This document shows, piece by piece, positions 6,791-56,680 of a DNA stretch of 64,000 nucleotides (the first letter of the stretch is position 1; the number at the start of each line of letters is the position of its first letter). A program made the position numbers and the translations under genes. The stretch is from NCBI GenBank assembly GCA_965197675.1, contig OZ240221.1, positions 1,923,437 to 1,987,436 of the forward strand, in the 5' to 3' direction. This DNA is from Dehalococcoidia bacterium. GTDB taxonomy: Bacteria; Chloroflexota; Dehalococcoidia; Plut-88900. Below the pieces are notes generated by a model, which worked only from the letters and a program-made list of their open reading frames with translations, was not told the origin of the DNA and did no database searches.

Positions 6791-6831
6791 ATCGAAAATC
6801 TACTAACCCGTTATTCTTATCGCTGTCTTTG

Positions 6832-7542
6832 TCAACTTGATCTGATGCGCCCTAGCACCTCGAGTCCAAAGGCTCCAATGCCATCATCCTTCCCAGCATG
6901 TAACAGGGCTTCCCATAAATACTCGCCGTAATCTCGTTGTACGTATAGCTGATAAGCCAATGTGTTTCCGATGTCAGAGCGAAGGACGATCACGTATACC
7001 TCCGCAGCCTTGCCTTGTGCACAGGAACCATCCGCAAACACAACGGGGTTTAGGTCCAGCTCAGCTAGCTTGGATAGTAATCGGTATGCTAACGGCCCTG
7101 ATACCAACACTCCCGCGTGCGTTGAGGTGATGTCCACTAAGTGGGCACATCCCTTTATGTTTTCCTTAAGGAAGTCTCCCACCGGGCCGACGTCCTGGGG
7201 CGATGATATTACCAGCGCATCGTCATAGGTTAATCCGACAACGGTTAATTGGTCATCGGTTGAAGTTGGGTTTGGGCAACTCTGGGCTTTACCTGCCTCA
7301 AGAGGTTCCGAGAGCGAGAGGACTTTTGATAAGGCCTTTAATGCCTCAGCACCTTGAATGTCGAGTTTGCCAACGGAGCTTATATCACATATTCCCCCGA
7401 AATCTCTCAGCATCTCCAAGTCAGACTCTAACGAGCTATATATCGACGGAAGATACCACCCGTCCTTCTCAACGATAGAGGCCCCCGCCGATTTATGAGT
7501 GTGATACATCGCCGTTCGCCTGGCGGGACCAGCTGTGGTCAT
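6832..7542 (-). CDS. soxG: sarcosine oxidase gamma-subunit family protein
   Basis: Size (about 236 aa) and position between the alpha and beta subunits. Weak GcvT-like fold signatures. Confidence 0.65.
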   Translation of the reverse strand: MTTAGPARRTAMYHTHKSAGASIVEKDGWYLPSIYSSLESDLEMLRDFGGICDISSVGKLDIQGAEALKALSKVLSLSEPLEAGKAQSCPNPTSTDDQLTVVGLTYDDALVISSPQDVGPVGDFLKENIKGCAHLVDITSTHAGVLVSGPLAYRLLSKLAELDLNPVVFADGSCAQGKAAEVYVIVLRSDIGNTLAYQLYVQRDYGEYLWEALLHAGKDDGIGAFGLEVLGRIRSS

Positions 7543-7555
7543 ACTCTCAGACCTC

Positions 7556-10483: not shown

Positions 10484-10498
10484 GGGCCTCTCGTTTGC

Positions 10499-10762
10499 TT
10501 AATCCACCTGCTCTTCAGGCCAGAAGGTTCTCTCCACTCGATTATTTAGTGTGTCTCGTTCTGCGAGGAACCAGCGGCGGCACCCAAACTTGTGATACCA
10601 CCACTCCCTTTGCACTCCCGCCTCGTTCTTGCGGAAGTGGAAATAGTGAGTCCAGACCTCTGATGGAGCATCGGGAGTAGGACGTGTAGTCACCTCACCA
10701 CCAAATCGGAAATCGTAGACGCTGCGCTCGCCACAGCTAGGACATGGCAACAGAAAAGCCAA
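10499..10762 (-). CDS. soxD: sarcosine oxidase delta-subunit family protein
   Basis: 87 aa with a CPSCGER...C..C zinc-ribbon-like N-terminus typical of SoxD. Sits immediately upstream of soxA. Confidence 0.8.
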   Translation of the reverse strand: MAFLLPCPSCGERSVYDFRFGGEVTTRPTPDAPSEVWTHYFHFRKNEAGVQREWWYHKFGCRRWFLAERDTLNNRVERTFWPEEQVD

Positions 10763-10840
10763 TAAGATTCTCCTTAAGAGTCGAACTGGAGGAAGACCCT
10801 GTTGGACTGTATCCTGGTTTGGATAATGATCGGCTCTTGA

Positions 10841-12205
10841 TTAGAACAGAGTGAGGTATCGCTCTATCTCCCACTGAGTAACCTGCCGATGATAGTCGCT
10901 CCATTCCTGCTCTTTGAGCTGAATGAACTCATCGTAGATAACGTCCAGGGCACTCTGAATCACCGAGTCCTGTTTTATCTCTTCCAAGGCTTCATACAAA
11001 CTTTGGGGCAGCAATCGAATGCCCCTTCGTTCAATCTCATCAAGACCGAGGTCGTACATGTTGCCCAGGTTGGGGTCACCAGGATCCAGTTTCCTCTTCA
11101 CTCCGTCCAACCCGGCCTGTACGTAGGATGCCAAAGCTAGGTAAGGGTTGCATCCGGCAGAAATTGTCCGATCCTCCAAGTGGCCTGGCCCGGCAGTGCG
11201 AATCATTTGTGTACGGTTGTTATCGCCGTAGGAGAGGAAGGCCGGAGTCCACAGGAATCCCGAGCGGGAGCCGACCAATGCTCTTCCTACCTGTAGCCTC
11301 TTGTAGCAGTTCACGGTGGGAGATGTTACACAGCAGAGAGCTCTAGCGTGATGTAAGATACCCCCGATAAAATGGTACGCCATCTCCGATAGCCCCAGAC
11401 CTTGAGGGTCTTCCTCGTCCAGAAAAAGATTCTCTCCCGTTCTTGCGTCTGCCAAGTGGAAATGGATGTGCGCACCACTGCCCGTGCGATCGGAGAAGGG
11501 CTTGGGCATGTGTGTGGCGGTGGCACCATGTTTTTTGGCCACCTGGCTCGTCATCATCTTGAAGAAGGTGTAGCGGTCGGCAGTAGTCAACGCATCGGCA
11601 TAGTGGAAATTAATCTCGTATTGGCCGTTTGCATCCTCGTGATCTGACTGATATACGTCCCAGCCCAATCGATTGAGGCCCTCGTTTATCTCTCTAAGAT
11701 AGTCCATGACCCCAGCGATGCCCTTGAAGTCGTAACAGGCCTTGTCCAAACTGTCCACATCATCTGGGTCCCATACCGCTATCGAGCCGTCATCGTTGTG
11801 CTTAACCAGGAAATGCTCCGGCTCTATACCTACATTAAAAACGTATCCTTGATCTCTGACTAGAGATAGTACCCTCTTCAGGTTTGTCCGTGGGCAATAG
11901 GGGTGAGGCTGATCATCAACGTACAGATCGCTGGCAAATCGGGCTGCGGTGGGCTCCCAGGGGAGTGGTGTATAGCTGTCAAGATCGATCCTGGCCAACA
12001 TGTCGTGGGAATGAGGCCCCTGACCCATGCCGGGTACGGCCCCTCCTGCGAATCCCGCCCCCACATCGATGACATCATCGAAGTGACTAACGGGCACAAG
12101 CTTGACTTTGGCAGCTCCATGGATGTCGACATATTGGGTCAGGACGTACTCGATTCCATCCTGCTCCATTCGTTGGCGGACATCTTCTCTATTATCTGCG
12201 GCCAT
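10841..12205 (-). CDS. glutamine synthetase family protein; in this context probably gamma-glutamylmethylamide synthetase (GmaS-like)
   Basis: GS catalytic-domain pattern at GmaS-like length (454 aa). Lies between the mgsABC-like and sox/mgd-like genes. Confidence 0.7.
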   Translation of the reverse strand: MAADNREDVRQRMEQDGIEYVLTQYVDIHGAAKVKLVPVSHFDDVIDVGAGFAGGAVPGMGQGPHSHDMLARIDLDSYTPLPWEPTAARFASDLYVDDQPHPYCPRTNLKRVLSLVRDQGYVFNVGIEPEHFLVKHNDDGSIAVWDPDDVDSLDKACYDFKGIAGVMDYLREINEGLNRLGWDVYQSDHEDANGQYEINFHYADALTTADRYTFFKMMTSQVAKKHGATATHMPKPFSDRTGSGAHIHFHLADARTGENLFLDEEDPQGLGLSEMAYHFIGGILHHARALCCVTSPTVNCYKRLQVGRALVGSRSGFLWTPAFLSYGDNNRTQMIRTAGPGHLEDRTISAGCNPYLALASYVQAGLDGVKRKLDPGDPNLGNMYDLGLDEIERRGIRLLPQSLYEALEEIKQDSVIQSALDVIYDEFIQLKEQEWSDYHRQVTQWEIERYLTLF

Positions 12206-12244
12206 GGAACTCCTCCTCCCTGGCCAATCAGGTTTCTGGGACGT

Positions 12245-13549
12245 CTAGTCCCAGCCGAAAACTTTATCGGTGCCGACCAGCGGAATCCGGGCCATGGCTG
12301 ACGCCTCGATGGTCAGAGCTGCCATGTCTTCTGGTTCCAAGCTGTGGACATCACTCTTGCCTAGAGAGCGGGTTAAAAGTGCCATCTCCATAGTCATGGA
12401 GTTGATGAAGTTGGCTACCCGAATGGCACCTTCCTCTGGGTCTAACCTCTTTTCCAGCTCGGGGTTCTGAGTGGCGATGCCTACTGGACATAGACCGGTC
12501 TGACAGTGATGGCAGTGTCCCGCTTTGATACCCACCTCTTTCTCGAAATCGGCCTCCGGAATATCCTTGTTGCAGTTCAAGGCTATCAAGGCGGCGATCC
12601 CGATGGCCACAGCATCGGCACCGAGAGCCAGGGCTTTGGCGGCGTCTACTCCGCTCCTTATACCTCCCGAAGCTATGAGGCTCACCTCACCGTAGAGCCC
12701 CAGCTCTCTTAGGGCCTCCCTGGCCAGAACTATAGCGGGGACGGTAGGTATGCCACTGTGATCCAGCAGTATCTCCGAAGAAGCTCCAGTGCCTGCCAGC
12801 ATGCTGTCTATGACTATGGCGTCGGCTCCCGCCTTCGCCGCCAGCTTGACATCATCCTTGACCCTGCAGGCTCCCAGCTTCACGTGGACCGGCACCTTCC
12901 AGTCAGTGGCTTCTCGAAGCTGTTCTATCTTCATCCCCAAATCGTCCGGGCCAAGCCAGTCTGGATGACGGGTGGGGCTGCGCTGGTCTATCCCTGAGGG
13001 GAGGTCTCGCATTTCCGCTATGTGATCCAGGACTTTTACGCCCATCAGCAACCCCCCGGTGCCTGGCTTGGCTCCCTGACCAACACATATCTCAATGGCA
13101 TCTGCCATCATTATGTGGTGAGGGTCTACCCCATACCGACTGGGCAGTATCTGATATATCAGCTTGTCCGATGCTTTCCTCTCGTCCATCAGCATACCAC
13201 CATCGCCGGTGCAGGTGGCGGAACCCACCATAGATGTGGCCTCTCCCAGAGCCACTTTGGCGTTTCTTGAGAGGGCCCCGTAGCTCATGCCAGTGATATA
13301 GATAGGGGTCTCTAACTCCAGGGGTTGTTCGGCGTACCTCTTGCCGATGATTGTCCTGGTGTTGCACTTCTCTTTGTATCCCTCCAGCGGGAACCGAGTC
13401 AGCCCTGTGGAAAGAAATGTCAGGTCGTCGAAGTGAGTGACCTTTTGAAAGGTGCTGAAGCCTCTGATCCGGTATCTGCCCAGCTCAGCTTTGGAATGCA
13501 CATCGTTGATAACATGAGGTGGCCAAATCTGGCTACTGCCCATCACCAT
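12245..13549 (-). CDS. FMN-dependent glutamate synthase domain protein (GltB central domain; MgsC-like N-methylglutamate synthase subunit C)
   Basis: Stand-alone GltB FMN/Fe-S domain with a Cys cluster (CHHCQTGLCPVG). Confidence 0.75.
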   Translation of the reverse strand: MVMGSSQIWPPHVINDVHSKAELGRYRIRGFSTFQKVTHFDDLTFLSTGLTRFPLEGYKEKCNTRTIIGKRYAEQPLELETPIYITGMSYGALSRNAKVALGEATSMVGSATCTGDGGMLMDERKASDKLIYQILPSRYGVDPHHIMMADAIEICVGQGAKPGTGGLLMGVKVLDHIAEMRDLPSGIDQRSPTRHPDWLGPDDLGMKIEQLREATDWKVPVHVKLGACRVKDDVKLAAKAGADAIVIDSMLAGTGASSEILLDHSGIPTVPAIVLAREALRELGLYGEVSLIASGGIRSGVDAAKALALGADAVAIGIAALIALNCNKDIPEADFEKEVGIKAGHCHHCQTGLCPVGIATQNPELEKRLDPEEGAIRVANFINSMTMEMALLTRSLGKSDVHSLEPEDMAALTIEASAMARIPLVGTDKVFGWD

Positions 13550-13564
13550 GTTGTTTCTCCCCTC

Positions 13565-14248
13565 CTAGATCACCCGTTTTTCTGACCGCTCTAGCGAATC
13601 GAAGTGGTACAGCTTCTTAGCTGATACGATCTTCTTGAAGTGAGGTTTATCCGTGACGCCATAGCCTTCCAAGATGCGCCATATCTCAACAAGTTCATCC
13701 TCCGTAGGTTCTTCTATCTTGGCGTCGCTTCCTAAAGAGCCAATGCTTCCCGCGACGAAGATCTCTCCCTCGTACATCGAGTCTCCCACACCGTCTCCTA
13801 CATCTCCACAGACTATTATCCTACCCTTCTGCATCATGAATCCAGTGAGAAATCCAGTATCGCCTCGGACGATGAGGGTGCCCCCTTTCATGGAGATGCC
13901 GGCTCTAGCTCCCGCGTTGCCGCCGACGAAGACCTCCCCACCCCTAATAGTCGAGGCTACTGAGGCGCCGGCATTTTTGGTCAATACGATTTTGCCATTC
14001 ATCAGATTGTCGCCTAGTGCCCAACCCGCATTGCCGTTGATAACTACCTCGGGGCCATCCATCAGGCTGGAGCAGAAATATCCGACACTCCCTTCGAAAG
14101 TAATCTTACAGGGCTTGAGGAGACCAACAGCCAGGTTGTGTCTGGCCTGAGGATTCAAGACTCTAATCTCTTGGTTCTCAGAAGTCAACTGCTTGATACG
14201 CTGGTTAATTTCCCGCACGCTCAAGGTGCTGGCTTTTATATCAGCCAC
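13565..14248 (-). CDS. glutamate synthase GXGXG-domain protein (MgsB-like)
   Basis: Repeated G-x-G-x-G beta-helix motif (GNAGWALG, GGNAGARAG, GDVGDGVG). Confidence 0.75.
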   Translation of the reverse strand: MADIKASTLSVREINQRIKQLTSENQEIRVLNPQARHNLAVGLLKPCKITFEGSVGYFCSSLMDGPEVVINGNAGWALGDNLMNGKIVLTKNAGASVASTIRGGEVFVGGNAGARAGISMKGGTLIVRGDTGFLTGFMMQKGRIIVCGDVGDGVGDSMYEGEIFVAGSIGSLGSDAKIEEPTEDELVEIWRILEGYGVTDKPHFKKIVSAKKLYHFDSLERSEKRVI

Positions 14249-15150
14249 GTCATAACCTCTTTTTCTTGAGGCTCCACACGTTCAATCTCATCGGGAAAAA
14301 TAGTCCTCAGAGCGACTTCCTCGGAAGCTAGAGAGATCATCTCTTTTGTCTCCATGAGGACTAGCGGCTTAGCTGCCCACTGATCTTTGGCGGCACCCAA
14401 TCCATCTTTGGTTGATACTAGATAAGTGAACGTACCGTCCAAGTCATCCAAAGAGGCCTCGAGAGCTTGTTGAAGCGAGGCCCCCTTGGCCAGCCTGTCA
14501 GCCAGATAGACGGCGATGAGTTCTGAATCGTTCTCAGTTTGAAAGCGGTGGCCCTGGTCTTCGTAGGCCCTCTTCAGCTTGTGATAGTTGGTGAGCTGTC
14601 CATTGTGAACGACAGTGATATCGGGAAACGGATACGCCCAGAAGGGATGAGCGTGAGTAATATCCACTCGACTCTCGGTAGCCATCCGAACGTGCCCAAT
14701 CCCGTGAGTACCCTTGAAAGAGGAGACTTTGTGCTTCTCATCGAGGTCTACACCACTTCCCACGTCCTTGATCACCTCCGAGCGTTCTCCTAGGCTATGG
14801 ATTTCGACCCCGTCGATGTTAACCAGAGCATCGGCCAGTACGTCAACGCCACCTTCATAGTTGACACCTAGTCTCAGGTACTCTCCTATAGAACCCCTAG
14901 TCCTCACCACCCCTCCACTCTCTGTAACTTTCTCTTCGACCTGCTGAAAGCGATCCTCGTAATCACTTTCGGGGTCGGCCCAGACTCGGATTAGGTAGTC
15001 CTCCTCTAATTCCTCACCTGCGATCGTTACGCCGCTGGAGTCCAGACCCCTGTGCTTCATCGCCTCCAGCATTTTCACCAGATCTTCCCCCACTGTAGCC
15101 AAGCTTCCAGGACTGGACAACTTGTACATAATGCCGCCTATGCCACACAT
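14236..15150 (-). CDS. class II glutamine amidotransferase domain protein (MgsA-like)
   Basis: Starts MCGI, with the catalytic Cys2 of Ntn-type amidotransferases. About 300 aa. First gene of the array. Confidence 0.75.
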   Translation of the reverse strand: MCGIGGIMYKLSSPGSLATVGEDLVKMLEAMKHRGLDSSGVTIAGEELEEDYLIRVWADPESDYEDRFQQVEEKVTESGGVVRTRGSIGEYLRLGVNYEGGVDVLADALVNIDGVEIHSLGERSEVIKDVGSGVDLDEKHKVSSFKGTHGIGHVRMATESRVDITHAHPFWAYPFPDITVVHNGQLTNYHKLKRAYEDQGHRFQTENDSELIAVYLADRLAKGASLQQALEASLDDLDGTFTYLVSTKDGLGAAKDQWAAKPLVLMETKEMISLASEEVALRTIFPDEIERVEPQEKEVMTWLI

Positions 15151-22519: not shown

Positions 22520-23623
22520 CTAGTCCTCCAAGTATGCCGCCAAGCCGCCGTCCAGCTTATCGCGACGGGGCATTCCTATCCAATCCGTGTACCGCAGATA
22601 GAGACGAATGAAGTCCCCCATCATGTGTTTGACTCTCCTCATACTACTGTAGGCGCCCTTGACCCCGTTACCCATGATCACTGCCATCGCCTCAGGGAGG
22701 ACGGGATCGTCCAGGTCCCGAACTAGCATTGGCTCCCCCACGTTCAGAAGGTTGTGGAATACTAACTCCTTCTCGGGCCTGTGAGCTATAACGTAACGTA
22801 GATGCTCCAAACCGTAGGCCATGTGCCGGGCCTTATCTTGAAGGCAGAGTCGAAATAGAATTTTCTCGGCGGGGTTGTGGGCTAAGACTTCACCATAGCG
22901 GTAGAGAATAAAGGTCAATGTGCCTCTTAGAAGGTAGAGGAACAGGGCTGCTTCAGACCAGCCTCCCGTGCTCTCCAAGATTATGCGGTTGACTTCTCCA
23001 CGGCCTTCTAGGCCCAACCCACCTCCGTTAGCCAGGGCTCTTTTCCGAAAGGCTTCCATGTGTCTCCCTGCGTCGGCGTTTTCGGTTGCCAGGAAGAGCT
23101 TAACCTCGTGGTATCCAAAGGACATATGCTGGAACCAGGAGCTGATGGACTCTACCTCGGTGTTGGCATGCTGGCTCAACTCGGTGCAGAGCTGACACAT
23201 GGCCGTCTCTACCTCATCGGATAAGGGGGTAAGGGTATCCCATGGAATGTGGGTGGCGGAAATCCACCGTCTTTGAATGGCCTCTTCGTACAGGTCTGCG
23301 GCATTGTCTGCCCATAGACTGTGTTTGTCACGCAGGCGATAACCGATGGGTGGAATGCCCTCGTGAGGATACCCGCCTCTAGGCAGACGGGTCTCATCAT
23401 CCCAACGGTCGGGTACCTCACCGTAGATGCCAACGTTCAGGGAGCCTAGAGTCAGTCCTTTTTTGCTCGGCCTGGCTTTGGTCCCCCATTGATGGGTCTT
23501 GTACATCCAGTCGAAAGAGGAGGGAGGGGTGGATTCAACTTCTTGTGAGACCTGAGTCTTGGCTGCCTCTCGTGTAGGACGTTTGGCGTCGACCTTGGGC
23601 CTCTTGCGTTTGGTCTCCGACAC
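22520..23623 (-). CDS. ferritin-like (diiron-carboxylate fold) protein, paralog of 23700..24869; the E residues of both ExxH motifs are replaced (ADAGRH, QDKARH)
   Basis: Alignable by eye to its neighbour. TEVE, AEK and the His residues are conserved but the ExxH glutamates are A and K here. Confidence 0.45.
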   Translation of the reverse strand: MSETKRKRPKVDAKRPTREAAKTQVSQEVESTPPSSFDWMYKTHQWGTKARPSKKGLTLGSLNVGIYGEVPDRWDDETRLPRGGYPHEGIPPIGYRLRDKHSLWADNAADLYEEAIQRRWISATHIPWDTLTPLSDEVETAMCQLCTELSQHANTEVESISSWFQHMSFGYHEVKLFLATENADAGRHMEAFRKRALANGGGLGLEGRGEVNRIILESTGGWSEAALFLYLLRGTLTFILYRYGEVLAHNPAEKILFRLCLQDKARHMAYGLEHLRYVIAHRPEKELVFHNLLNVGEPMLVRDLDDPVLPEAMAVIMGNGVKGAYSSMRRVKHMMGDFIRLYLRYTDWIGMPRRDKLDGGLAAYLED

Positions 23624-23699: not shown

Positions 23700-24869
23700 T
23701 CAGTTCTGGATGTACTTCATCAACTCGGGATTGGCTCGGCCGTTTTCGAAGCGCTCGCTGAAGCCCGCCGAGTGCACTCTTTGGATGTACTCTTTTACCT
23801 GGCGCTTCTGGATAGCTAGCGAGATATTGTGACCCTCATCTATGTTCTCCTTGCCACGCCCCAGGAGAATTCCTAAGGCGTCGTGGCTGGGAGAATCCAG
23901 GGAGAGGGGATTTTGATTTCCTCTCACCAGCGCCTCTTCGCCGTCGTCAAGGTAGTAATGAATCTCTTCGCGGCGTTCTGGGGCTGTCTCTCCGACGTAG
24001 CGCAGGTGCATCACTCCGAAGGCGACGTGCCGGGACTCATCCTGTGCAGCAAGGCGATATATTCGCTTCTCGGCTTCGTTGTATGCCATCAACTCGCCGG
24101 TGCGGAATATGGTGAGCACCGACCCTTCGCCCGAGATGTGTAAACGGGCGGACATCTCTGTGAAGTCACGTGCTACATCTATGCTGCCGACGGAAGAGGC
24201 GGCTGTTGCTTCCGGCCCCGGCTGCTGCAGCAGCCCTCCGCCATTGACGAGGGCACGCTTACGGAATACATCCAAGTGACGCGCCTCGTCCATTATCTGA
24301 GTGATAAGGAACAATCGAGGCTCCATGTAGTCGGGGCTTGTCCAGGAAACCCAGCGACCCGGCACGTCTCCAGCTACGAACTCCACCTCTGTAAGGAAGG
24401 TTGCGAGCTGACACTCCGCTCTCTCTATATCATCGGGCAGGGGTTCTATGCTGTCCCAAGGGACGTCGGTTGCCGAACTCCACTGTCTCTGGAGGGCTTC
24501 TTCGTAAAGACTTGCGGCGTTAGCAAGCCATATGTCCGACTTGGTGAAAACACTGTAGGCACCTATGCGAAATCCATCGCGCCTGGAGGTGGAACCACGA
24601 GGACGGCCAGTGCGATTATCGCTGTGATCAGATGGTGCACCATAGGACCCTATGCTGATGTCATCGAGGGTGAGACCGTGTTTTCCAGGTTGGGCTTTTG
24701 CACCCCACTCGCCCCTCTGGTCCATCCAGCCCATGTCCAACTCATAACCCTGGGTATGCCACTTAGGTTTCTCGGTGGCGCTAGATGTAACCATACCGTC
24801 ACCCCTTGCCTTAGGATGACTGAATTCTATCATGATTGAGAGATCTGAAGCAAACGCCCAGTTGAACAC
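23700..24869 (-). CDS. ferritin-like diiron-carboxylate protein with a full ligand set (TEVE ... DEARH ... AEK ... DESRH); putative oxygenase/oxidase catalytic subunit
   Basis: Two E...ExxH half-sites at helix-appropriate spacing. Confidence 0.45.
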   Translation of the reverse strand: MFNWAFASDLSIMIEFSHPKARGDGMVTSSATEKPKWHTQGYELDMGWMDQRGEWGAKAQPGKHGLTLDDISIGSYGAPSDHSDNRTGRPRGSTSRRDGFRIGAYSVFTKSDIWLANAASLYEEALQRQWSSATDVPWDSIEPLPDDIERAECQLATFLTEVEFVAGDVPGRWVSWTSPDYMEPRLFLITQIMDEARHLDVFRKRALVNGGGLLQQPGPEATAASSVGSIDVARDFTEMSARLHISGEGSVLTIFRTGELMAYNEAEKRIYRLAAQDESRHVAFGVMHLRYVGETAPERREEIHYYLDDGEEALVRGNQNPLSLDSPSHDALGILLGRGKENIDEGHNISLAIQKRQVKEYIQRVHSAGFSERFENGRANPELMKYIQN

Positions 24870-24899: not shown

Positions 24900-26177
24900 A
24901 TGCTAGTTGATTTGGCATATGGAAGGACTGGACTTACTGTCGAACTTCCCGACGAACGAACTACCGTCATAGAACCGACCTATTTGCCTGCCCTGCCCAA
25001 GGAAAAAGATACGCTGCTCAAAGCCATAAGAGAGCCTATAGGCAAACCTCCCCTGCGAGAACTTGCCAGAACCACTCACAGGGTAGCCATATCGGTTTGC
25101 GATATCACCAGACCTATGCCTTCGAGAACTGTGCTGCCAGTGCTACTGAAGGAGCTTGACCATGTCCCCAAGGATCAGATAGTGATCCTGGTAGCTACCG
25201 GGACTCATCGCGCTAATACTCTTCAGGAGATAGAGGAGATGCTAGGCAGAGAGATAATCGAGAACTACCAAGTAGTCAATCACAACGGTTTCGACAAAGA
25301 CCAGCTTAAGCTGATTGGCAAGACCTCAGATGGGATACCCATTTTGCTTAACCGACACTGGTTGGAGAGCGACTTCAGGATAACCACAGGTTTCGTTGAA
25401 CCTCACTTCTTCGCTGGCTTCAGTGGAGGTCCCAAAATGGTGGCGCCGGGGCTGGCCGGATTCGAAACGATCCTGGGCTTGCACAGCGCTCCCCTCATTG
25501 GTCATCCCAAGTCCAAGTGGGGTGCTATCGACGGGAATCCCATTCAGGATGCCATCCGTCAAATCGTGCGTAGTAGTGGTGTAGATTTCAGTATCGACGT
25601 GACCATCAACAGAGACCACCGGATCACCAGCGTGCATGCAGGCGATGTGTTTGGTGCTCATAGAGAAGCATGCCAAATGGCGAGAGAAGTCGCCATGCAC
25701 CAAGTGATCGAGCCCTTCGATGTGGTCATTACCACCAACAGCGGATACCCTCTGGATATCAACCTGTATCAGAGCGTCAAGGGTATGTCGGCGGCTGCTC
25801 AGGTAGTTAGACCCGGCGGCACTATCATCTGTGCCGCCGAATGTAGTGACGGCATTCCCGACCATGGCGAATACAAGGAGATTCTGGCCTCACGAAACAG
25901 CCCTCAGGAGATGTTGGATATGATCAACTCACCTGAATACCATCACCAGGATCAATGGCAGGTCCAGCTTCAAGCCCAGATACTGCTTCGTGCTCAGGTG
26001 TATCTAAAGTCCAGCTATCTTAGTGCAGAACAGGTAAAGGCGGCTCATCTGGAGCCGGTAGAAGACCTACAAGACACGGTCATGCAGTGTATTGAAAGGC
26101 ATGGAGAGGGTGCTACTGTTTGCGTTCTGCCTCAAGGTCCTCAGACCATTCCATACGTGAAGAACGACTCTGGCTAG
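24900..26177 (+). CDS. LarA-like (lactate racemase family, nickel-pincer-nucleotide-dependent 2-hydroxyacid racemase/epimerase-like) protein
   Basis: LarA N-terminal domain pattern with ATGTHR. About 425 aa. Confidence 0.65.
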   Translation: MLVDLAYGRTGLTVELPDERTTVIEPTYLPALPKEKDTLLKAIREPIGKPPLRELARTTHRVAISVCDITRPMPSRTVLPVLLKELDHVPKDQIVILVATGTHRANTLQEIEEMLGREIIENYQVVNHNGFDKDQLKLIGKTSDGIPILLNRHWLESDFRITTGFVEPHFFAGFSGGPKMVAPGLAGFETILGLHSAPLIGHPKSKWGAIDGNPIQDAIRQIVRSSGVDFSIDVTINRDHRITSVHAGDVFGAHREACQMAREVAMHQVIEPFDVVITTNSGYPLDINLYQSVKGMSAAAQVVRPGGTIICAAECSDGIPDHGEYKEILASRNSPQEMLDMINSPEYHHQDQWQVQLQAQILLRAQVYLKSSYLSAEQVKAAHLEPVEDLQDTVMQCIERHGEGATVCVLPQGPQTIPYVKNDSG

Positions 26178-29338: not shown

Positions 29339-30466
29339 CTAAAGGAAGCCGTAAAGCTTGCCAGCGTTATCTCGGGTGACCTTTCGGCGAGCCGTATCGC
29401 TGAGCTTTTTCATGTCCCGGTCTATGGCCTTTTGTGAGTTGGGCCATGACCCATCCACGTGAGGATAGTCCGAGCCCCACATGACCCTGTCCTCACCTGC
29501 GAGGGGAATGATGTCACCCGCCGTGGGCTCTGACTCGAAGGTCGAGAATCCCTGTCGACGGAAGTAACCGCTGGGTTTTAGGCTGAGACCTTCCTGACCC
29601 TCTCCTTCATAGTCCATTCTGTCCAGAACATAGGGCAGCCAGCTGACGCCGCACTCGCCAAGAACGAACTTGAAGTTGGGGTATCGCTCGCATGCTCCGG
29701 AGAAAACAATGCTGGACAGGTACTCCACACCGGAAAGCTGGAACATGGTAAGGAGTATGTTAGAGTAGATGTCGCCATAGGCTTCGGCTTCTACAGGGTC
29801 TTCAATCTTCCTCGGCCATAGCTCCAGGGTGTGGAAAGAGATGGGTAGTCCAGTTTCCTCGCCGGCGGCCCATAGTGGATCCCAGTCTTTGTGATACATT
29901 GGCTTGTTCATGGTGCCTGGGCTGATCTCGGCTCCTCTCAGACCCAATTTAGCGACTCTAAGTAACTCCGCGGCAGCCACCTTGGGGTCGTGATTAGGAA
30001 GACATGCAAGCCCAGCCAAGCGGTCGGATTTGCCTTTGGTGAAGTCGGCGATCCAGTCGTTATATATTCGATAAATCTCCACCTTCAACTCGGGGTCGTC
30101 GTCTGGCTGAGGTACATCGAGAAGTCCATATATGACCTCTGCGTCTACTCCATCCCGCTCTAAATGCTGTATGCGTACATCTGCATTGGCTGGGGGATAT
30201 CTGCCGTCGGTTATTTCATAGAGGCCGGCTTTTTCAAAGGTCTCTATTTTACGCTTGTGTTCGGATGTGGGATTTTCAAGGAATTCCTTCCACGACCCTA
30301 CGGAGCCTCTGTCTGTGCCGCCTGCCTCCCATCGAAGCCCCCTATCCGTCTCAATCACGTGAGGCACCTGGTCCTTCCACTTGGACGATGCGTTAGCCGT
30401 AAAGACGTCCTCTGGCATGAAAAAGATGTCCATATGGCCGTCGCCTGAAATGATCCTGTAGTCCAT
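29339..30466 (-). CDS. amidohydrolase family 2 protein
   Basis: Paralog of 2047..3153 and 38261..39418 (ISGDGHMD motif). Confidence 0.7.
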   Translation of the reverse strand: MDYRIISGDGHMDIFFMPEDVFTANASSKWKDQVPHVIETDRGLRWEAGGTDRGSVGSWKEFLENPTSEHKRKIETFEKAGLYEITDGRYPPANADVRIQHLERDGVDAEVIYGLLDVPQPDDDPELKVEIYRIYNDWIADFTKGKSDRLAGLACLPNHDPKVAAAELLRVAKLGLRGAEISPGTMNKPMYHKDWDPLWAAGEETGLPISFHTLELWPRKIEDPVEAEAYGDIYSNILLTMFQLSGVEYLSSIVFSGACERYPNFKFVLGECGVSWLPYVLDRMDYEGEGQEGLSLKPSGYFRRQGFSTFESEPTAGDIIPLAGEDRVMWGSDYPHVDGSWPNSQKAIDRDMKKLSDTARRKVTRDNAGKLYGFL

Positions 30467-30621
30467 TTAATTCCTCCCAGCTAGGAACTTACGTCCGCCT
30501 TTTGGATATCATATCAGGGGGTATTTCACCCGTCAACAATCTATAGCAACACAGCTTTACCATACTTACCAACCTTGTTTATACTTGACTTTCGGCAATG
30601 TGTTGAAGGAGGTATCACCAG

Positions 30622-32292
30622 ATGTATACGATGGAAGTCCTGCATCCCGTGGCGGAAGCAGAGGGCGACAAGAAGGTTTCCAGACCTGCTCCTAGGCCCA
30701 ACTCTTTGGATGGCCTCACCATAGGATTGGTGTGGAATGCTAAGAGAGGTGGCCTCGATGCCCTTGGTAAGGCTGGAGAGCTTATCAGCAATAAATACAG
30801 CGGCGTGACCGTAAAGCGCTACGAAGGCAGCCAGCCATGTAAGAAGGAGCTTCTGGAGCAGGCGGTGAGAGAGTGTGATGTATTCGTCGGCTCCACAGCT
30901 GACTGAGGCTCTTGTACGTCGTGGCTTGTCCACGACATGGTTGTGATAGAGAAGGCGGGCAAACCGACAGCCGCTATAGTGGCCAAGGGCTTCGACAGGG
31001 ATGCCATGGTCAGCGCCAGAGCCTTCGGGTTGCCCTGGTTTAGATATGCCCTCGTGCCAGAGGTTCTGACTGGCCTCAGCCCTGAGCGCATAGAGGAGCA
31101 TGTTACCAACGCCTTCGACCAGATAGTGCAGGTGCTCACCACCAACTCCAACGGAGAAGGCCTGCCCGCCGTAGCAGATGCGAGAGCTGCGGATAGATTG
31201 AAGGTGGAGGGAACAGACAGGTACGATGCCTTTGAGGCCATGAATAGCCTGTTCATGGAGAATGAGTGGGGGGATGGCTTCCCCTTGATACCTCCGACGC
31301 CGGAAAAGGTGGAGTGGATGCTAAAGGGCACCACTAGAGACCACCAAGACGTGGTTACGGTGCTGCCGCCGGGCCTCCGATATGCCACCGTAGAGAAGAT
31401 AGCCATAAACGCGGTGATGGCAGGGTGCGAGCCTTCTCATTTACCCATCCTTATGGCGGCCTGCGAGGCGCTACCTGGATTCGGTAGCACTGCAAGAGTA
31501 TTGACCATGTCGACAAGCCCCAATGCACCACTGCTGATGATTAATGGCCCTATCTCCGGGGAGATAGGTTTCAACTCAGGTCGATGCGCCTTGGGGCCGG
31601 GATCCCCGTCGCGACATAACGTAGCGGTTGGCAGGGCTTTCAGGCTTGTTTTGATGAACGTCGGTAATGCCTACCCAGCTCGCATGGATATGGACACCAT
31701 TGGCTCGTCTCGCAAGTTCAGCATGTGCTTTGCAGAGAATGAAGAAGAGAGTCCATGGGCTCCCTATCACACGGACTTGGGCTTCGACAAGGATGAGAGC
31801 ACCGTCACCATATTTGACACTATCGGGGAAGAGGACGTGGACGACTTGACCAACTGGGAGTCGGAACGAGTGCTGGACAGTTTCGCTGCCGCTTGCTCCA
31901 ATGTGCCGGCCAGGTACGTGGTCAACTTCTTCGACCAGGAAAAACCGACGGATCGTATACTGCTGGCCATGTGTCCCGAGCACGCCAACATATGTGGAAA
32001 GGAAGGATGGTCGAAGCGCTCGGTGCGAGAGTACGTACACAACTATGCTCGCATGAATGCTAGGGTGGCCATGTGCTGGGGACGTAAGACCCCAGAGCTT
32101 TTCCGCCCGGAGTGGAGATGGCTGCTGGACAGGTCAGAATCGGAACTGGAGCAGATAGCGTTGCAGGTTCTGGAAAATGCCGACCTGTACGATGTAGCTG
32201 TGGTTGGCGGGCCTGCTGGAAAGAGTATGGTTTTCCACGCCCTGTGCGGTGGGCCCTCTACTGTCCTCATCAAGGATAGAGCTCCTATCTAG
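30622..32292 (+). CDS. candidate selenoprotein of unknown function. Two same-frame ORFs are joined by an in-frame TGA at 30904..30906, giving the motif U-G-S-C. I recall an NCBI family named 'UGSC family (seleno)protein' from memory only; this is unverified.
   Basis: ORFs 30622..30906 and 30937..32292 share one frame. Read-through gives ...VGSTAD-U-GSCTSW... A SECIS-like hairpin lies 11 nt after the TGA. Confidence 0.5.
30918..30936 (+). promoter_or_regulatory. bacterial SECIS-like hairpin (GTCGTGG-CTTGT-CCACGAC) beginning 11 nt 3' of the in-frame TGA
   Basis: A 7-bp perfect stem with a 5-nt loop that contains GU. The 11-nt spacing matches the position of the E. coli fdhF SECIS. Confidence 0.4.
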
Positions 32293-32364: not shown

Positions 32365-33237
32365 ATGGAATTCGGAATAGTTTTTCCCCAGACGGAGATA
32401 GGAACGAATCCCAGGGATGTGCGGGATTTCGTTGTAGCCGTGGAAGAGATGGGATACTCCAATCTGGTTGTGTATGACCACGTACTGGGTGCCGACACCA
32501 CAAATCGTCCTGACTGGGATGGCTTCTACGCCCTCGAAGACATGTTCCACGAACCCTTCGTACTGTTCGGGTTCCTAGCGTCGTTTACGAAAAGAATTCG
32601 GCTGGTGACGGGAATCCTAATACTATCGCAGCGACAGACGGCTCTGGTGGCCAAACAGGCTGCCGAAGTGGATGTGCTCACTGGAGGCCGCCTAACTCTG
32701 GGCGTTGCCGTAGGCTGGAACGACGTGGAGTTTGAGGCCCTCGGGGAGGACTTTCATAACCGAGGTGTCCGATCTGTGGAGCAGATCGAAGTACTCAGGG
32801 CCTTGTGGACACAGGAGATAGTGGACTTCAAAGGGCGCTGGCACACGATTACGGCAGCTGGCTTAAATCCTCTTCCCGTGCAACGCCCTATACCTATCTG
32901 GTTTGGCGGAGGCGCCGAGCCCGTCCTGAAGAGGATAGGCCGTTTGGGAGATGGCTGGCTAATCGACCGTGAACCCGATGAAGACGGGAAAGCGGCAATA
33001 GAGCGCGTAGGAAACTATGCTAGAGAGGTTGGGCGAGACCTCTCTTCCATAGAGATCGTTCCCACTATAGAGTCTTCCTCTGTGGGAATTGAGTCTATAG
33101 TGGACTGCGTAAAGGAGTGGCGAGGCCTCGGTATAACAAACGTAGCCATTGAAACGATGAAGCTGGGTCTGACCACTGCCAAGGACCACATCGACTTCGC
33201 GAGGAAGCTGAAAGAAGACACTAAAAGCGTGGTTTAG
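32365..33237 (+). CDS. LLM-class F420/flavin-dependent oxidoreductase
   Basis: Luciferase-like pattern over about 290 aa. Confidence 0.7.
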   Translation: MEFGIVFPQTEIGTNPRDVRDFVVAVEEMGYSNLVVYDHVLGADTTNRPDWDGFYALEDMFHEPFVLFGFLASFTKRIRLVTGILILSQRQTALVAKQAAEVDVLTGGRLTLGVAVGWNDVEFEALGEDFHNRGVRSVEQIEVLRALWTQEIVDFKGRWHTITAAGLNPLPVQRPIPIWFGGGAEPVLKRIGRLGDGWLIDREPDEDGKAAIERVGNYAREVGRDLSSIEIVPTIESSSVGIESIVDCVKEWRGLGITNVAIETMKLGLTTAKDHIDFARKLKEDTKSVV

Positions 33238-36462: not shown

Positions 36463-37471
36463 CTAATCTCGAATGGGTATGCCCTCCTTCAGGCGGCGCT
36501 CCTCTTCACGCTGGGCGTGTTCGCCCGGCAAGACGATTTCGTCGAAGCCTTCGGCTAGTCGAGATGACTTGATGGCCCTTATTAAATCGTCCACTCTGGC
36601 CTTGAACTGATCTATCGGAACAAGACGGTCAATATTTATTGCCATCAGAAAGACGCCTGCTTCCCAAGGATGCTCGGCTGAGGCGTGCCAGGTTATATCC
36701 TTCGATACCGCTACGCCCGAGAGCAACCCTGACAAGACCTCAACCCAAATAAGCCATCCAAACCCCCTGGGGCCCAGAGGCAATAACGCTCCTAGTATCT
36801 CGGAGTTTCTATTTGAAGGCTCCAACACCAGAGGCTTAGGATCAGTGGTCACACGACCATTTTCATCCACGACAACACCTTCTGGTACAGGTACGCCGTC
36901 ATGGGCGGCCCGAATGATGCGTCCATCGCATACTGCGCTGGTAGAACCGTCAAAGACAATGGGCCTCTCAGCTCCTGCTGGTACCGCAAATGAGATGGGA
37001 TTCATATTGAAATCTGGTCTCGGCCTCCCCAAGGAGCTACGGCCGGCGCCCCGTTACAGGTAACGAATCCTATGTAGTCATGCTTCAATCCTGCATGGAA
37101 TAGTTGCCTGCCATAGTGAAATCATTGGCGTTTCTCAACCACACACTACCAAGCACCGACTCTTGAGCCTTTTCTATGGCGACTTCCATGGCTTTAGTAG
37201 TTACCACTTGGCCAGTCCCGTGTCCCCCATCTATTACGGCATAGCTCGGCCCCTCGTCCAGTATTTTGATGGACACTCCGAACTTTAATGCATCTCTCTT
37301 GACCAGGGGGTAGACGATGGTGAACCCCGCTATTCCCTGGTTGTCCTTGCCAGTTAGATCAGCCTTGATAAGGCAATCAGTGAAGATCCTCACCTCCTCT
37401 TCGGTTGCACCGAGTTTCCTCCAAACGGTGATGTAGATCCTATACAGGTAGTCTGATGATTCGATGCGCAT
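36463..37471 (-). pseudogene. Ldh_2 family (malate/L-lactate/sulfolactate dehydrogenase-like) gene split by a frameshift
   Basis: N-terminal 128 aa (37085..37471) and C-terminal 189 aa (36463..37032) both match Ldh_2 but lie in different frames. Confidence 0.55.
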
Positions 37472-38058: not shown

Positions 38059-38148
38059 TGGCGGAGGGGGTGGGATTCGAACCCACGATCCACTTGCGCA
38101 GATGCCGGTTTTCAAGACCGGTGCCTTAAACCGCTCGGCCACCCCTCC
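38059..38148 (-). tRNA. tRNA-Ser (anticodon UGA), type II with a long variable arm, CCA encoded
   Basis: Hand fold. Acceptor GGAGGGG/CCCCTCC. Anticodon stem-loop CCGGT-CTTGAAA-ACCGG. T-loop GGTTCGAATCC. Confidence 0.85.
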
Positions 38149-41398: not shown

Positions 41399-42661
41399 CT
41401 AGTCTACGACGTCGAATTTGGTGTAGGGACGCAGGACCTCCGGCACGATGACAGTGCCATCGCTTTGCTGGTAGTTCTCCAGAATGGATATCATTACCCT
41501 GGGCAGGGCAAGGCCAGAGCCATTTAGGGTGTGCACGAATTGGGGGGAAGCGTCCTTCTCAGTTCGATAGCGAATGTTGGAGCGGCGCGCCTGGAAATCT
41601 GTGCAATCGCTGCAAGAGCTGACCTCAAGCCACTCTTGTAGGCCTGGCGCCCACATCTCTAAGTCGTAGGACTTGGCCGAGGGAAAGCCCAGATCTCCCG
41701 CGCAAAGCTGCAGCACCCTATAGGGAATGTTCAGTCCCTGGATTACAGCCTCGGCGTCGGCCACCATTCTAGATAACTCATGGTCAGAGGACTCAGGCTC
41801 TACCAGCTTGTACATCTCCACTTTGTCGAACTGGTGCCCTCGTTTGATTCCTCTCGTGTCCCGGCCTGCCGACATCTTCTCTCTTCTGAAGCAGGGTGTG
41901 TATGCGACGTAGTTTAGGGGCAGGGTATGGGGGGGCAATATCTCGTCACGGTGAAGGTTGGTCAGAGGAACCTCCGCGGTAGGGATCAACCACAGGTCGT
42001 CCTCCTCATCGTGGTAGAGGTTGTCGCCGAACTTGGGCAGGTTGCCGCTTCCTATCATGGTCTCCTGCTTGACCAGGAAGGGAAGATAGGTTTCCTGGTA
42101 GCCGTGCTTCTGGACGTGAAGGTCCATCATCCAATTGATGAGGGCTCGCTGGAGGCGGGCACCCTGTCCTTTGAGGACGTAGAAGCGAGAGCCGGAAATC
42201 TTGACTCCCCTATCGAAGTCGAGGATGCCCAACCTCTCACCGAGCTCCCAATGAGGGAGGTGATTGAAGTCCAAGGAAGTAGGCTCGTGCCAGCTTTTGA
42301 CTATCAGGTTGCCGGATTCGTCTGCCCCGTCTGGCACGTCATCTCTGGGGATGTTGGGCAGGGTGAGAAGAGCGGCCTCCAGGTCGGCCTCTATGATCTT
42401 GAGGTCATCTTCCAGGGCCTTGATCTCGTCGCCCACCTGACGCATTTCGGCGATGACCTCTGGGGGCTTATCCTTCATCTTGGAGAGCTGTTTGCTGACT
42501 TGATTCCGACGAGCCCGCAGGGCCTCAGACTCGGACAAGATGCTGCGACGACGCTGGTCCAGGTGGAGAATCTGGTCCAGGGGGGCATCGTCTTCGCCGC
42601 GTCGGGACAGGGCCTCTCGCACGACCTGGGTATTATCTCGGATAAGCTGCAGGGATAGCAT
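41399..42661 (-). CDS. serS: serine--tRNA ligase
   Basis: N-terminal coiled-coil arm plus a class II core. Confidence 0.9.
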   Translation of the reverse strand: MLSLQLIRDNTQVVREALSRRGEDDAPLDQILHLDQRRRSILSESEALRARRNQVSKQLSKMKDKPPEVIAEMRQVGDEIKALEDDLKIIEADLEAALLTLPNIPRDDVPDGADESGNLIVKSWHEPTSLDFNHLPHWELGERLGILDFDRGVKISGSRFYVLKGQGARLQRALINWMMDLHVQKHGYQETYLPFLVKQETMIGSGNLPKFGDNLYHDEEDDLWLIPTAEVPLTNLHRDEILPPHTLPLNYVAYTPCFRREKMSAGRDTRGIKRGHQFDKVEMYKLVEPESSDHELSRMVADAEAVIQGLNIPYRVLQLCAGDLGFPSAKSYDLEMWAPGLQEWLEVSSCSDCTDFQARRSNIRYRTEKDASPQFVHTLNGSGLALPRVMISILENYQQSDGTVIVPEVLRPYTKFDVVD

Positions 42662-46224: not shown

Positions 46225-46735
46225 CGCTCATGTCCTTCGACAAGCTCAGGATGAGCGGGGGTCTCCTCTCTCTTGGATTCCCGTGTCAAGACACGGGAAT
46301 GATGGGTGGGGTAGGGAGAAGGGACTGCCCCCTCTTCCTGATGGGCTTGTCTCAGAAAGGCGAACGTCTTTTATCCCACCCTCCCGCCCTGGTAGGTTGT
46401 TAGAAGTCGAGGGGGCACCCCTCGAGCACCCCGCCAGAGGGAACCATCCCTCTGGACCCTCTCCGCTGGGGATTCTTGGACAAGCCTCTCTTGGATTCCC
46501 GTGCTTGGCACGGGAATGACGGGAAAGAAGGTTGGGGTACCCTTCCCTTCGACTATGCTCAGGGTAAACTTTAAGCTAAGGGTGAGTGGAGACACCTCAA
46601 CCTGTCCCGGTAGGTTTTTGTATGTGGGGGCACATCTCCCAACCCCCCCTGCCAGAGGGAGGTATGTCCCTGCCTGCGCCTCGTTCGGCGCGCTTGTCTG
46701 TCCGCAGGCAGGCCTCTGGACACCCTCTGAATGAG
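46225..46735. repeat. cluster of modular intergenic repeats (two hairpin copies at 46277..46300 and 46495..46517) in the greA/rsmD divergent region
   Basis: Modules FDKLRMSG-coding, C, B and palindromes present. Confidence 0.65.
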
Positions 46736-47904: not shown

Positions 47905-48500
47905 TAGATTCCCCTCCCAGATAGGCAAATAAACCTCGTTGGCGCCCGAGTGAAGGGGCTGGTATCGCTATTGGAAGGGCTTGGCGGTCACCAGGGAGGT
48001 ATGACTATTGGAGCAAGGGGCGGTCTTTCCCACCCGCCCGCCCCGGAAAGTGGCTGTGGGGGCACATTCCCCAGTCAAGCTGAGGACAGGCCCTCTGCCA
48101 GAGGTTGGTTTCCTCTGGACTCCCTCTGCTGGGGATTCTTGGACAAGCCTCTCTTGGATTCCCGTGTCAAGCACGGGAATGACGTGAAAGAAGGGGGCAC
48201 GGAATGATGGGAAAGAGGGGAGCAGGGGAATGACGACATAGGAGGTGAGGGTGCCCTTCCCTTCGACTACGCTTAGGGTAAACTTTAAGCTAAGGGTGAG
48301 CGGAGACACCTCAACCCTGCCCGGTAGGTTTTTGTATGTGGGGCACATTCCTTCGAGAGACTCAGGACAGGCCCCCTGGCAGAGGGGCATCACCCCTTTG
48401 CCAGCTCCTATTGGCAACAAGGCGTCCTTCGTGGGGGGAGGGATGTGTCTACATGAGTGGCAGGGGTGAAGCCTCCAAGCCACAGGCTGCCCCTTCACCA
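47905..48500. repeat. cluster of modular intergenic repeats (hairpin at 48158..48180) between coaD and polA
   Basis: Same modules. Generates the spurious ORF 47968..48501. Confidence 0.65.
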
Positions 48501-52159: not shown

Positions 52160-52680
52160 CTGGATTCTCCACCCAAAAACGTAAGAAGACCTCGTTGGCG
52201 CCTGCCTGCTACAGGCAGGGCTGCTGTAAAGCGGGCTATGATGGTTCTTGCACAAGAGAAGCTATCATCAATGAGGTGAACATGTTATCAAGCAAGGACT
52301 GCTGCCATTCCAGTACCTTGAGTCTGTCTCAGAAAGGCAAACACCTTAGTCCCACCCGTCCGCCGCTGTAGGTTTTTGTATGTGGGGGCACCATCCCCCA
52401 GTCGAGCTGAGGACAGGCCCCCAGGCCCTCTGCTGGGGATTCTTGGGCAAGCCTCTCATGGATTCCCGTGTCAAGCACGGGAATGACGGTATAGAGGGCT
52501 GGGGTACCCTTCGACAGGCTAAGGGTGAGCGGAGACACCTCAACCCTGCCCTGTAGGTTTTTGTATGTGGGGGCACATCCCCCAGTCGAGCTGAGGACAG
52601 GCCCCCAGGCCCTCTGCCAGAGGGAGGTGTGTCTGCTGCTGGCAGGCCTCTGGACTCCCTCGGTGAAGGATTCCTGGACA
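52160..52680. repeat. cluster of modular intergenic repeats (hairpin at 52462..52484; two B-module copies) in the mutM / VOC-gene convergent region
   Basis: Same modules as the other loci. Confidence 0.65.
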
Positions 52681-56374: not shown

Positions 56375-56680
56375 CCCCCGGCCCCTGGGAGGGTTTTGTA
56401 TCTGGGGGGCAGTTCCCCCCAACCCCCTGCCAGAGGGATGTTTCCCTCTGGACCCTCTGCAGGGGCATCCTCCTCCCCGCCTAGGTAAGTGGTCTCCAAA
56501 CCCCCAGGCAAGGAGGCTCTGCGTCAGAAAGGCGAAGGCTTTGGTCCCACCCTCCCGCCCAGGTAAGTGGTTCTTGGGAGCACATCTCCCCCGTGCAACA
56601 CGTCTTCCCTGGATTCCCGTGTCAAGCACGGGAATGACGGGTGGAGCGGCTTTCGATAAGCTGAGGGTGGGGGATTGGGG
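56375..56680. repeat. modular intergenic repeat element (hairpin at 56613..56635)
   Basis: Same modules as the other loci. Confidence 0.65.

Follow-up and report, generated by a model that had tools for sequence, protein, structure and literature searches.

A probable UGSC-family selenoprotein gene with a SECIS-like hairpin in a Dehalococcoidia bacterium

Since 2007, lists of selenoproteins without assigned function have included a UGSC-containing protein, from Hyphomonas neptunium (PMC1976440), and UGSC is a major selenoprotein family in ocean metagenomes, where 255 selenocysteine (Sec, U) and 21 cysteine sequences were counted (PMC2398784). Fusions designated 'UGSC/Unknown_1' and free 'Unknown_1' proteins occupy one sentence and one supplementary figure of the same study (PMC2398784, Fig. 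S1A), and recent reviews give no UGSC function (PMC9312934, PMC13188914). Here we analyze a gene of this family in a 64,000-nucleotide stretch of DNA from a Dehalococcoidia bacterium (contig OZ240221.1, positions 1,923,437 to 1,987,436), referred to below as the window, within which all positions are given. The gene, at 30622..32292 on the forward strand, had been singled out in a preliminary description, made from the sequence alone, as a candidate selenoprotein carrying an in-frame TGA. Our results argue very strongly that it is a single UGSC-family selenoprotein gene with a functional selenocysteine insertion sequence (SECIS). The selenoprotein call itself amounts to a misannotated gene of a known family; what is added here concerns the apparent coupling of its C-terminal domain to UGSC.

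On direct reading of the DNA, the frame opened by the ATG at 30622 continues to the TAG at 32290-32292, and its sole interruption is the TGA at 30904-30906. This agrees in every coordinate with the preliminary description, which had reported two open reading frames (ORFs) in a common frame split only by that TGA: the upstream ORF (30622..30906) consists of 94 codons plus the TGA, the downstream ORF (30937..32292) encodes 451 amino acids, and the ten stop-free codons between them (30907-30936) encode GSCTSWLVHD. Translation reproduced the read-through product, 556 residues with the sequence ...VFVGSTAD-U-GSCTSWLVHDM..., in which Sec would be residue 95; the peptide predicted across the TGA is ...ECDVFVGSTAD-U-GSCTSWLVHDMVVIEK. 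Assignment of the UGA codon (30904..30906) to U95 draws on the alternation of TGA with Cys codons in homologs, and that of the U-G-S-C redox-type motif formed by U95 and C98 (30904..30915) on translation, homolog alignment and a homolog model. A strong Shine-Dalgarno sequence, GAAGGAGG (30605..30612), lies 9 nucleotides 5' of the ATG at 30622, and inspection of the sequence upstream of the internal ATG at 30937 revealed none comparable to it. Further upstream, a promoter-like site, TTTACC-18-TATACT (30556..30585), was recognized by consensus match only and is weak evidence, because four such sites occur in the region where 1.9 are expected. TGA serves as the terminator of 12 of the 37 Pfam-supported genes in the window; therefore the genetic code is the standard one and reassignment of the codon is excluded. 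A scan of the window found no second copy of the gene and no other in-frame-TGA candidate.

For comparison with Pfam and NCBIfam, the read-through protein was queried with Cys substituted for U. The Pfam family PF24696, 'UGSC family', matches residues 5-173 (30634..31140) with an E-value of 1e-35 and 123.8 bits against a threshold of 25, covers profile positions 1-171 of 172, and aligns continuously across the TGA; nothing else in Pfam matched the 556-residue protein at E<=0.01, the GrdB/PrdB family PF07355 included. The preliminary description had proposed a search of such models and a search for homologs with Cys at the U position, and both were productive: UGSC family models match the region around the TGA, and full-length Cys homologs exist. 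It had also left a C-terminal part of about 450 residues unrecognized, which holds for residues ~188-556 (~370 residues), for which there is no family, but not for the portion before them, since the UGSC domain extends across the TGA to residue 173.

In a search of 5.8 billion proteins, the gene's own product was retrieved as a truncated 451-residue gene call (P0001; 100% identity, 81% coverage), along with dozens of relatives of ~449 residues that carry the same truncation; among the matches listed, nearly all of the closest ~60 relatives are truncated to a similar length. Relatives of ~560 residues cover 96-100% of the query, and RefSeq gives some of them, from Roseixanthobacter, Phytohabitans and Paraburkholderia, the name 'UGSC family (seleno)protein'. 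When the full-length relatives were aligned end to end, the U column proved to be Cys in 12 of 12 (TADCGSCTSWL), with flanks that are invariant or nearly so; the U/C-G-S-C motif, U95-G-S-C98 here, is conserved as U-G-[STAG]-C in all relatives. We read the locus as one gene, not two, because PF24696 crosses the TGA, the ~560-residue homologs align from end to end and a Shine-Dalgarno sequence is present only before the ATG at 30622. Automatic gene calling thus truncates the selenoprotein, 451 residues being called out of 556.

The homologous codon was followed at the DNA level in 80 loci, obtained by a scan with one genome per species. Most derive from metagenome-assembled genomes (MAGs) of Dehalococcoidia/Chloroflexota, the closest (L001) being a Dehalococcoidia MAG with 77% identity, and the remainder from Candidatus Entotheonella, Nitrospinota, Rokubacteria/Methylomirabilota, Desulfobacteraceae and a few Proteobacteria and Actinobacteria. 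With the window and paralogs counted, 81 long-form copies could be compared: the codon is TGA in 75 and TGC or TGT in six. Protein sequence is conserved on either side of the TGA, and the Cys forms are continuous; a stop followed by a restart, the pattern that the preliminary description had named as contrary to its proposal, is not what these genes display. The internal ATG at 30937 corresponds to the Met of ...HDM..., which is not universal, one locus (L002) having HDL.

The second line of evidence is a hairpin with a perfect 7-bp stem, GUCGUGG/CCACGAC, and the loop CUUGU (30918..30936, forward strand), separated from the TGA by a spacer of 11 nucleotides (30907-30917). Its position, spacing and the GU in its loop are as first described. 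The hairpin nucleotides also serve as codons for a conserved peptide, S-W-L-V-H-D (S-W-L/M-x-H-D across homologs). ViennaRNA predicts it in the centroid structure as well as in the minimum-energy one; the stability of the 71-nucleotide segment is no better than that of shuffles (z = -0.15), and the single-sequence fold is therefore no evidence by itself. Comparison of the homologs is more informative. With the stem register fixed at nucleotides +15 to +21 and +27 to +33 (numbering starts at the T of TGA), 7/7 standard pairs form in 70 of the 75 TGA homologs and 6/7 in the other five; the six Cys forms make 4-6 pairs, none of them all seven, and a 7/7 stem with a 5-nucleotide loop occurs in only 0.2% of the 19-nucleotide windows of these genes. 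In 69 distinct sequences the stem cells are 99.0% paired; sliding the 3' arm by 1-3 nucleotides lowers this share to 15-55%. Compensatory double changes (G-C to C-G, G-C to A-U) are found at three of the seven stem pairs, and the observed pairing and covariation values were reached by 0-1 of 500 shuffles.

Because the hairpin overlaps a conserved peptide, synonymous sites were tested as well. Codon entropy was compared over 133 columns in which a degenerate amino acid is conserved; its three lowest values in the gene all belong to stem codons, and the difference between the stem region and the rest is significant (Mann-Whitney p = 5e-4). Ser+5 is TCG in 99% of Sec forms, versus 27% of Ser codons in these genes at large, while the stem codons His+9 and Asp+10 are CAC in 97% and GAC in 96%. 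Where the His position is substituted in Sec forms (Tyr UAC, Arg CGC), pairing is preserved as G-U or U-G. Short-form UGSC genes at unrelated loci carry a hairpin at the same place with other stem sequences, such as GUCAUCC/GGAUGAC in L081. The concern raised at the outset that the hairpin might not be conserved is thus answered by near-complete pairing, compensatory change and synonymous constraint, and, judged from these alignments, the hairpin is a SECIS-type element on which selection acts specifically in the genes that have UGA at this codon. Peptide and hairpin share the same codons, so that protein sequence and RNA structure appear to be constrained together, and a SECIS written into the codons of a conserved peptide illustrates cleanly how the two kinds of constraint can overlap.

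Homolog, hairpin and family-model tests therefore all favour the selenoprotein interpretation put forward in the preliminary description, whose wording, 'poorly characterised selenoenzyme', was fair in that the family is known and its function is not. Several results nevertheless count on the other side. The NCBIfam model NF041046, 'UGSC family (seleno)protein', matches residues 31-173 at 96.9 bits, below its equivalog cut-off of 125; RefSeq proteins of the same architecture that bear this name score 101-116 bits, likewise below the cut-off, and the long forms are therefore relatives, not members, of the short-form equivalog. Part of the sequence conservation of the hairpin is owed to the protein it overlaps, and independent compensatory changes are few among the long forms (4 cells). 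The loop CUUGU has its G at position 4 (GU at 4-5), not within the first two loop positions, and no Rfam family was matched, a permissive threshold over 30850-31010 giving only a chance SorY match at E = 1. The gene's neighbours in the window (Amidohydro_2, LLM-class oxidoreductases, alpha/beta hydrolase) are not conserved beside homologs in the 80 related loci. Finally, neither tRNA-Sec nor selA, selB or selD was found within the 64-kb window: ARAGORN detected no tRNA-Sec in the window and 60 related loci, the only tRNAs in the window being Ala(GGC) and Ser(UGA), and tblastn with E. coli SelD gave no match in the window or any of the fetched loci. The case for Sec decoding in the source organism comes from the gene itself, which points to such decoding.

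How far do these data fit other explanations? The locus might hold two separate genes, one for a 94-residue protein ending at the TGA (30906) and an independent one for a 451-residue protein starting at the ATG at 30937. Gene callers gave exactly the latter product, as they did for the many relatives of ~449 residues, and the ATG follows the TGA by only 30 nucleotides. Yet the GSCTSWLVHD encoded between TGA and ATG is the most conserved motif of the family, a single Pfam domain spans the stop, the Cys-form homologs run straight through, and the supposed restart codon, which lacks a Shine-Dalgarno sequence, is the conserved Met of HDM, replaced in HDL; two genes are on this evidence extremely unlikely. 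A pseudogene or an assembly error, the TGA having arisen recently by nonsense mutation or from a miscalled base in a metagenome assembly of long reads, would have some precedent in the window, where an Ldh_2 gene (36463-37471, reverse strand) is broken by two frameshifts, so that errors or decay do occur in this sequence. The probability of such an accident here is close to negligible, given that the same TGA codon stands in 75 independent homologs from several phyla, that a selected hairpin accompanies it, and that the frame is intact and conserved on both sides; the same 451-residue call from other assemblies (P0122 and P0123) points towards persistence of the TGA.

A different possibility accepts read-through and denies selenocysteine: the UGA might be decoded by near-cognate Trp or Cys insertion, the hairpin merely slowing termination, or by Cys-tRNA(Sec) under selenium shortage. 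The tRNA(Sec)/SelB route can itself place Cys at Sec codons if selenium is limiting, and the lack of Sec machinery among the genes of the window would suit an explanation of this kind. On the other hand, the codon alternates specifically with Cys codons, as expected for Sec, and the geometry of the hairpin (11-nucleotide spacer, short stem, G and U in the loop) is that required by SelB and not that of generic read-through. The family is, moreover, catalogued as a selenoprotein (PMC2398784; NF041046). Read-through without Sec is accordingly regarded as very unlikely, and the interpretation of 30622-32292 as a selenoprotein gene is retained in what follows.

Structures were predicted for a full-length Cys homolog (P0073, 42-43% identical) and, separately, for the C-terminal domain of the window's own protein. 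AlphaFold2 gave P0073 a two-domain model with a mean predicted local distance difference test (pLDDT) score of 95.5 and a predicted template modelling (pTM) score of 0.94, with low confidence at the linker near residues 181-190. From this homolog model, the UGSC domain is predicted to be a flavodoxin-like/Rossmann-like alpha/beta domain, in which the motif equivalent to U-G-S-C follows beta-strand 90-96 and leads into helix 99-114. A thioredoxin fold, suggested for the UxxC domain in PMC2398784, was considered and set aside in favour of this fold.

The C-terminal domain (residues 188-556, ~370 residues; 31183..32289) belongs to no curated family and has no solved structural relative. A profile search of PDB sequences returned only insignificant matches to ketopantoate reductase (E ~0.3), and fold searches gave no match to GrdB/PrdB. 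The domain is nonetheless abundant: a HMMER search of 1.84 billion cluster representatives matched 4,467 clusters at E<=0.001, 869 of them also at E<=1e-30. These fall into length classes of ~440-455 residues (Sec forms truncated by gene callers), ~550-570 residues (Cys forms), ~340-380 residues (the domain alone) and ~715 residues (two tandem copies). Fused and stand-alone forms share D218, C269, R338, C369, E372 and H454 (window numbering), and C322 is conserved in fused forms only. The domain is large, confidently foldable and structurally unprecedented. In a further arrangement, tandem duplication within one chain (P0159, P0167, P0168 and P0170, ~715-740 residues; L085 and L086, 3501-5654), the genes adjoin an SBP_bac_5 gene and have no UGSC gene within ~3 kb in view.

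Where the C-terminal domain is encoded alone, a short UGSC gene accompanies it: such a gene was present on the same strand within ~2 kb on all four contigs examined (L081 4001-5618; L082 3501-5121; L083 3501-7180; L084 623-3660). These short genes are split into two calls by an in-frame stop, which in three of the four is a TGA with the hairpin. The order of the parts can also be reversed, as in P0185 (461 residues), where the C-terminal domain precedes UGSC and the gene call stops at UGSC profile position 92, just before U. The occurrence of the domain as a separate gene beside a short UGSC gene, or fused to UGSC in reverse order, therefore suggests that the two form a two-part unit. The four clusters also hold family-III CoA-transferases, TctC-type binding proteins, an acyl-CoA dehydrogenase and a Zn-dependent alcohol dehydrogenase, and one of them contains a ~300-residue Pyr_redox_2 protein, similar in size to thioredoxin reductase. 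In the neighbourhood of the long forms, 17 of 80 loci have SBP_bac_5 binding proteins; ABC (ATP-binding cassette) transporter components, Zn-dependent alcohol dehydrogenases and D-2-hydroxyacid dehydrogenases are recurrent neighbours as well. The link between UGSC and the C-terminal domain thus supplies a concrete protein pair for expression and assay, with neighbourhoods that hint at substrates.

These observations lead us to propose a model for the synthesis and working of the protein. During translation, the UGA at 30904-30906 would be decoded as selenocysteine, the hairpin 11 nucleotides downstream acting as a bacterial SECIS to which SelB, carrying Sec-tRNA(Sec), binds and from which it delivers Sec to the ribosome; that SelB binds this hairpin and inserts Sec at U95 we infer with high confidence. 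In the finished protein, the U95-x-x-C98 pair of the N-terminal flavodoxin-like domain would cycle between the selenol/thiol and the selenenylsulfide, and so regenerate, or donate electrons to, a cysteine active site of the C-terminal domain (C269/C369, with E372, H454 and R338), which may act on a small organic compound imported by the cell, perhaps a carboxylate or coenzyme A (CoA) ester. Small redox carriers of the thioredoxin/GrdA type serve a separate catalytic protein, for example in the glycine reductase system, and where the two parts are encoded separately the short UGSC protein may play the role that thioredoxin or GrdA has for its partner enzymes. That the pair has a redox role and that the domains are coupled is deduced from the motif and the arrangement of the parts, and we put forward the relay from U95/C98 to the C-terminal catalytic domain tentatively, with our judgement leaning somewhat against it. 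Only a little short of an even chance, in our estimation, is the broader proposal that UGSC is the redox half of a widespread, undescribed two-component enzyme whose obligate partner is the ~350-370-residue C-terminal domain, the whole being a reductase (or isomerase) that depends on selenium, acts on small organic acids or CoA esters and has many paralogs in Dehalococcoidia/Chloroflexota.

Multiplication of the gene is seen in individual genomes. The groundwater Chloroflexi MAG JACPQD01 carries the long form at least nine times, in part as tandem copies on a single contig (L003, L009, L010, L018, L021, L024, L025, L067); seven of the eight primary copies have the TGA, as does a second long copy at L009, and no motif was detected in L025. 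At another locus, L037, three UGSC-type TGA genes lie inside 7.6 kb. Together, the copies in JACPQD01 and L037 represent a strong paralog expansion of a selenoprotein.

In the window, the selenoprotein gene is followed on the same strand by a gene for a TIGR03619-family F420-dependent LLM-class (luciferase-like monooxygenase) oxidoreductase (32365..33237; 257.5 bits against a cut-off of 166.9), with which it is possibly co-transcribed, since no terminator-like site lies between them. Upstream, an Amidohydro_2-family protein is encoded divergently (29339..30466, reverse strand). The preliminary description had placed the gene in a 'catabolic island'; in the sense of foreign DNA this found no support, the GC content being flat (0.52-0.56) across the window and housekeeping genes (serS, lysS, greA, polA, the men operon) lying close by, and a horizontally acquired island was dropped from consideration for want of a compositional signal. 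A few kb from the selenoprotein gene are a 90-nucleotide tRNA-Ser (38059-38148, reverse strand), whose anticodon UGA reads UCA codons, and a seryl-tRNA synthetase gene (41399-42661, reverse strand). It is an ordinary serine tRNA and not to be confused with tRNA-Sec, which has the anticodon UCA.

Other features of the window are recorded here for completeness. A LarA homolog, related to the nickel-pincer-cofactor-dependent lactate racemase (24900-26177, forward strand; 533 bits against an NCBIfam equivalog cut-off of 460), lies among LLM-class oxidoreductases, amidohydrolases and an alpha/beta hydrolase. Adjacent to one another on the reverse strand, two paralogs of ~370-390 residues (22520-23623 and 23700-24869) match no Pfam family and have DExRH-like motifs; one of them faintly resembles R2-like ligand-binding oxidase (27.8 bits), and the pair probably represents di-iron proteins of the ferritin-like type. 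A cluster at 5573-15150 (reverse strand) resembles those for methylated-amine/sarcosine catabolism and comprises a DAO-type oxidase, a 975-residue sarcosine-oxidase-alpha-like protein, a GCV_T protein, a glutamine-synthetase-like gene, and glutamate-synthase-like, GXGXG and GATase subunits, with succinyl-CoA synthetase and MTHFR following nearby. The broken Ldh_2 (malate/L-lactate dehydrogenase family) gene mentioned above is spread over three frames, with its middle piece, ...GFVTCNGAPAVAPWGG..., in the third, and represents either a decaying gene or indel errors of the long-read assembly. Lastly, an intergenic repeat of ~250-400 nucleotides is dispersed in at least four places (46262-46672, 48059-48385, 52325-52615, 56384-56639), with sub-blocks that are 77-95% identical and include a conserved hairpin, TTCCCGTG-TCAAG-CACGGGAA; spurious ORFs arise from it in both orientations, and its appearance is that of a small non-autonomous mobile element or a structured extragenic one.

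Among described systems, the gene stands closest to the UGSC family itself (PF24696; NF041046; Zhang & Gladyshev 2007/2008, e.g. Hyphomonas neptunium ABI76733.1), with which it shares the U-G-S-C motif, a minority of Cys homologs, a domain of ~170 residues, a SECIS hairpin directly after the UGA and an environmental distribution that includes aquatic and marine metagenomes. It differs in that NF041046 describes a stand-alone protein of ~147 residues, whereas here the domain makes up the N-terminal third of a 556-residue protein. In this respect it resembles by description the 'UGSC/Unknown_1' proteins in the Global Ocean Sampling (GOS) selenoproteome, in which UGSC is fused to a domain of unknown function with conserved Cys that is also free-standing in some aquatic organisms. 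The likeness to thioredoxin/GrdA systems is one of possible working, a small Sec/Cys-x-x-Cys module lying beside or fused to a larger partner, in one cluster with a thioredoxin-reductase-like gene; no sequence or fold relationship of the UGSC protein to thioredoxin, GrdA, GrdB or PrdB was found. The hairpin invites comparison with the E. coli fdhF SECIS, to which the preliminary description had likened it: both follow an in-frame UGA after an 11-nucleotide spacer, lie inside the coding sequence and form a short stem-loop with G and U in the loop. Unlike the fdhF element, the one described here has another sequence, a perfect 7-bp stem without a bulged U, and a loop of 5 nucleotides with G at position 4, or of 3 nucleotides in AUGGU variants, as its putative SelB site.

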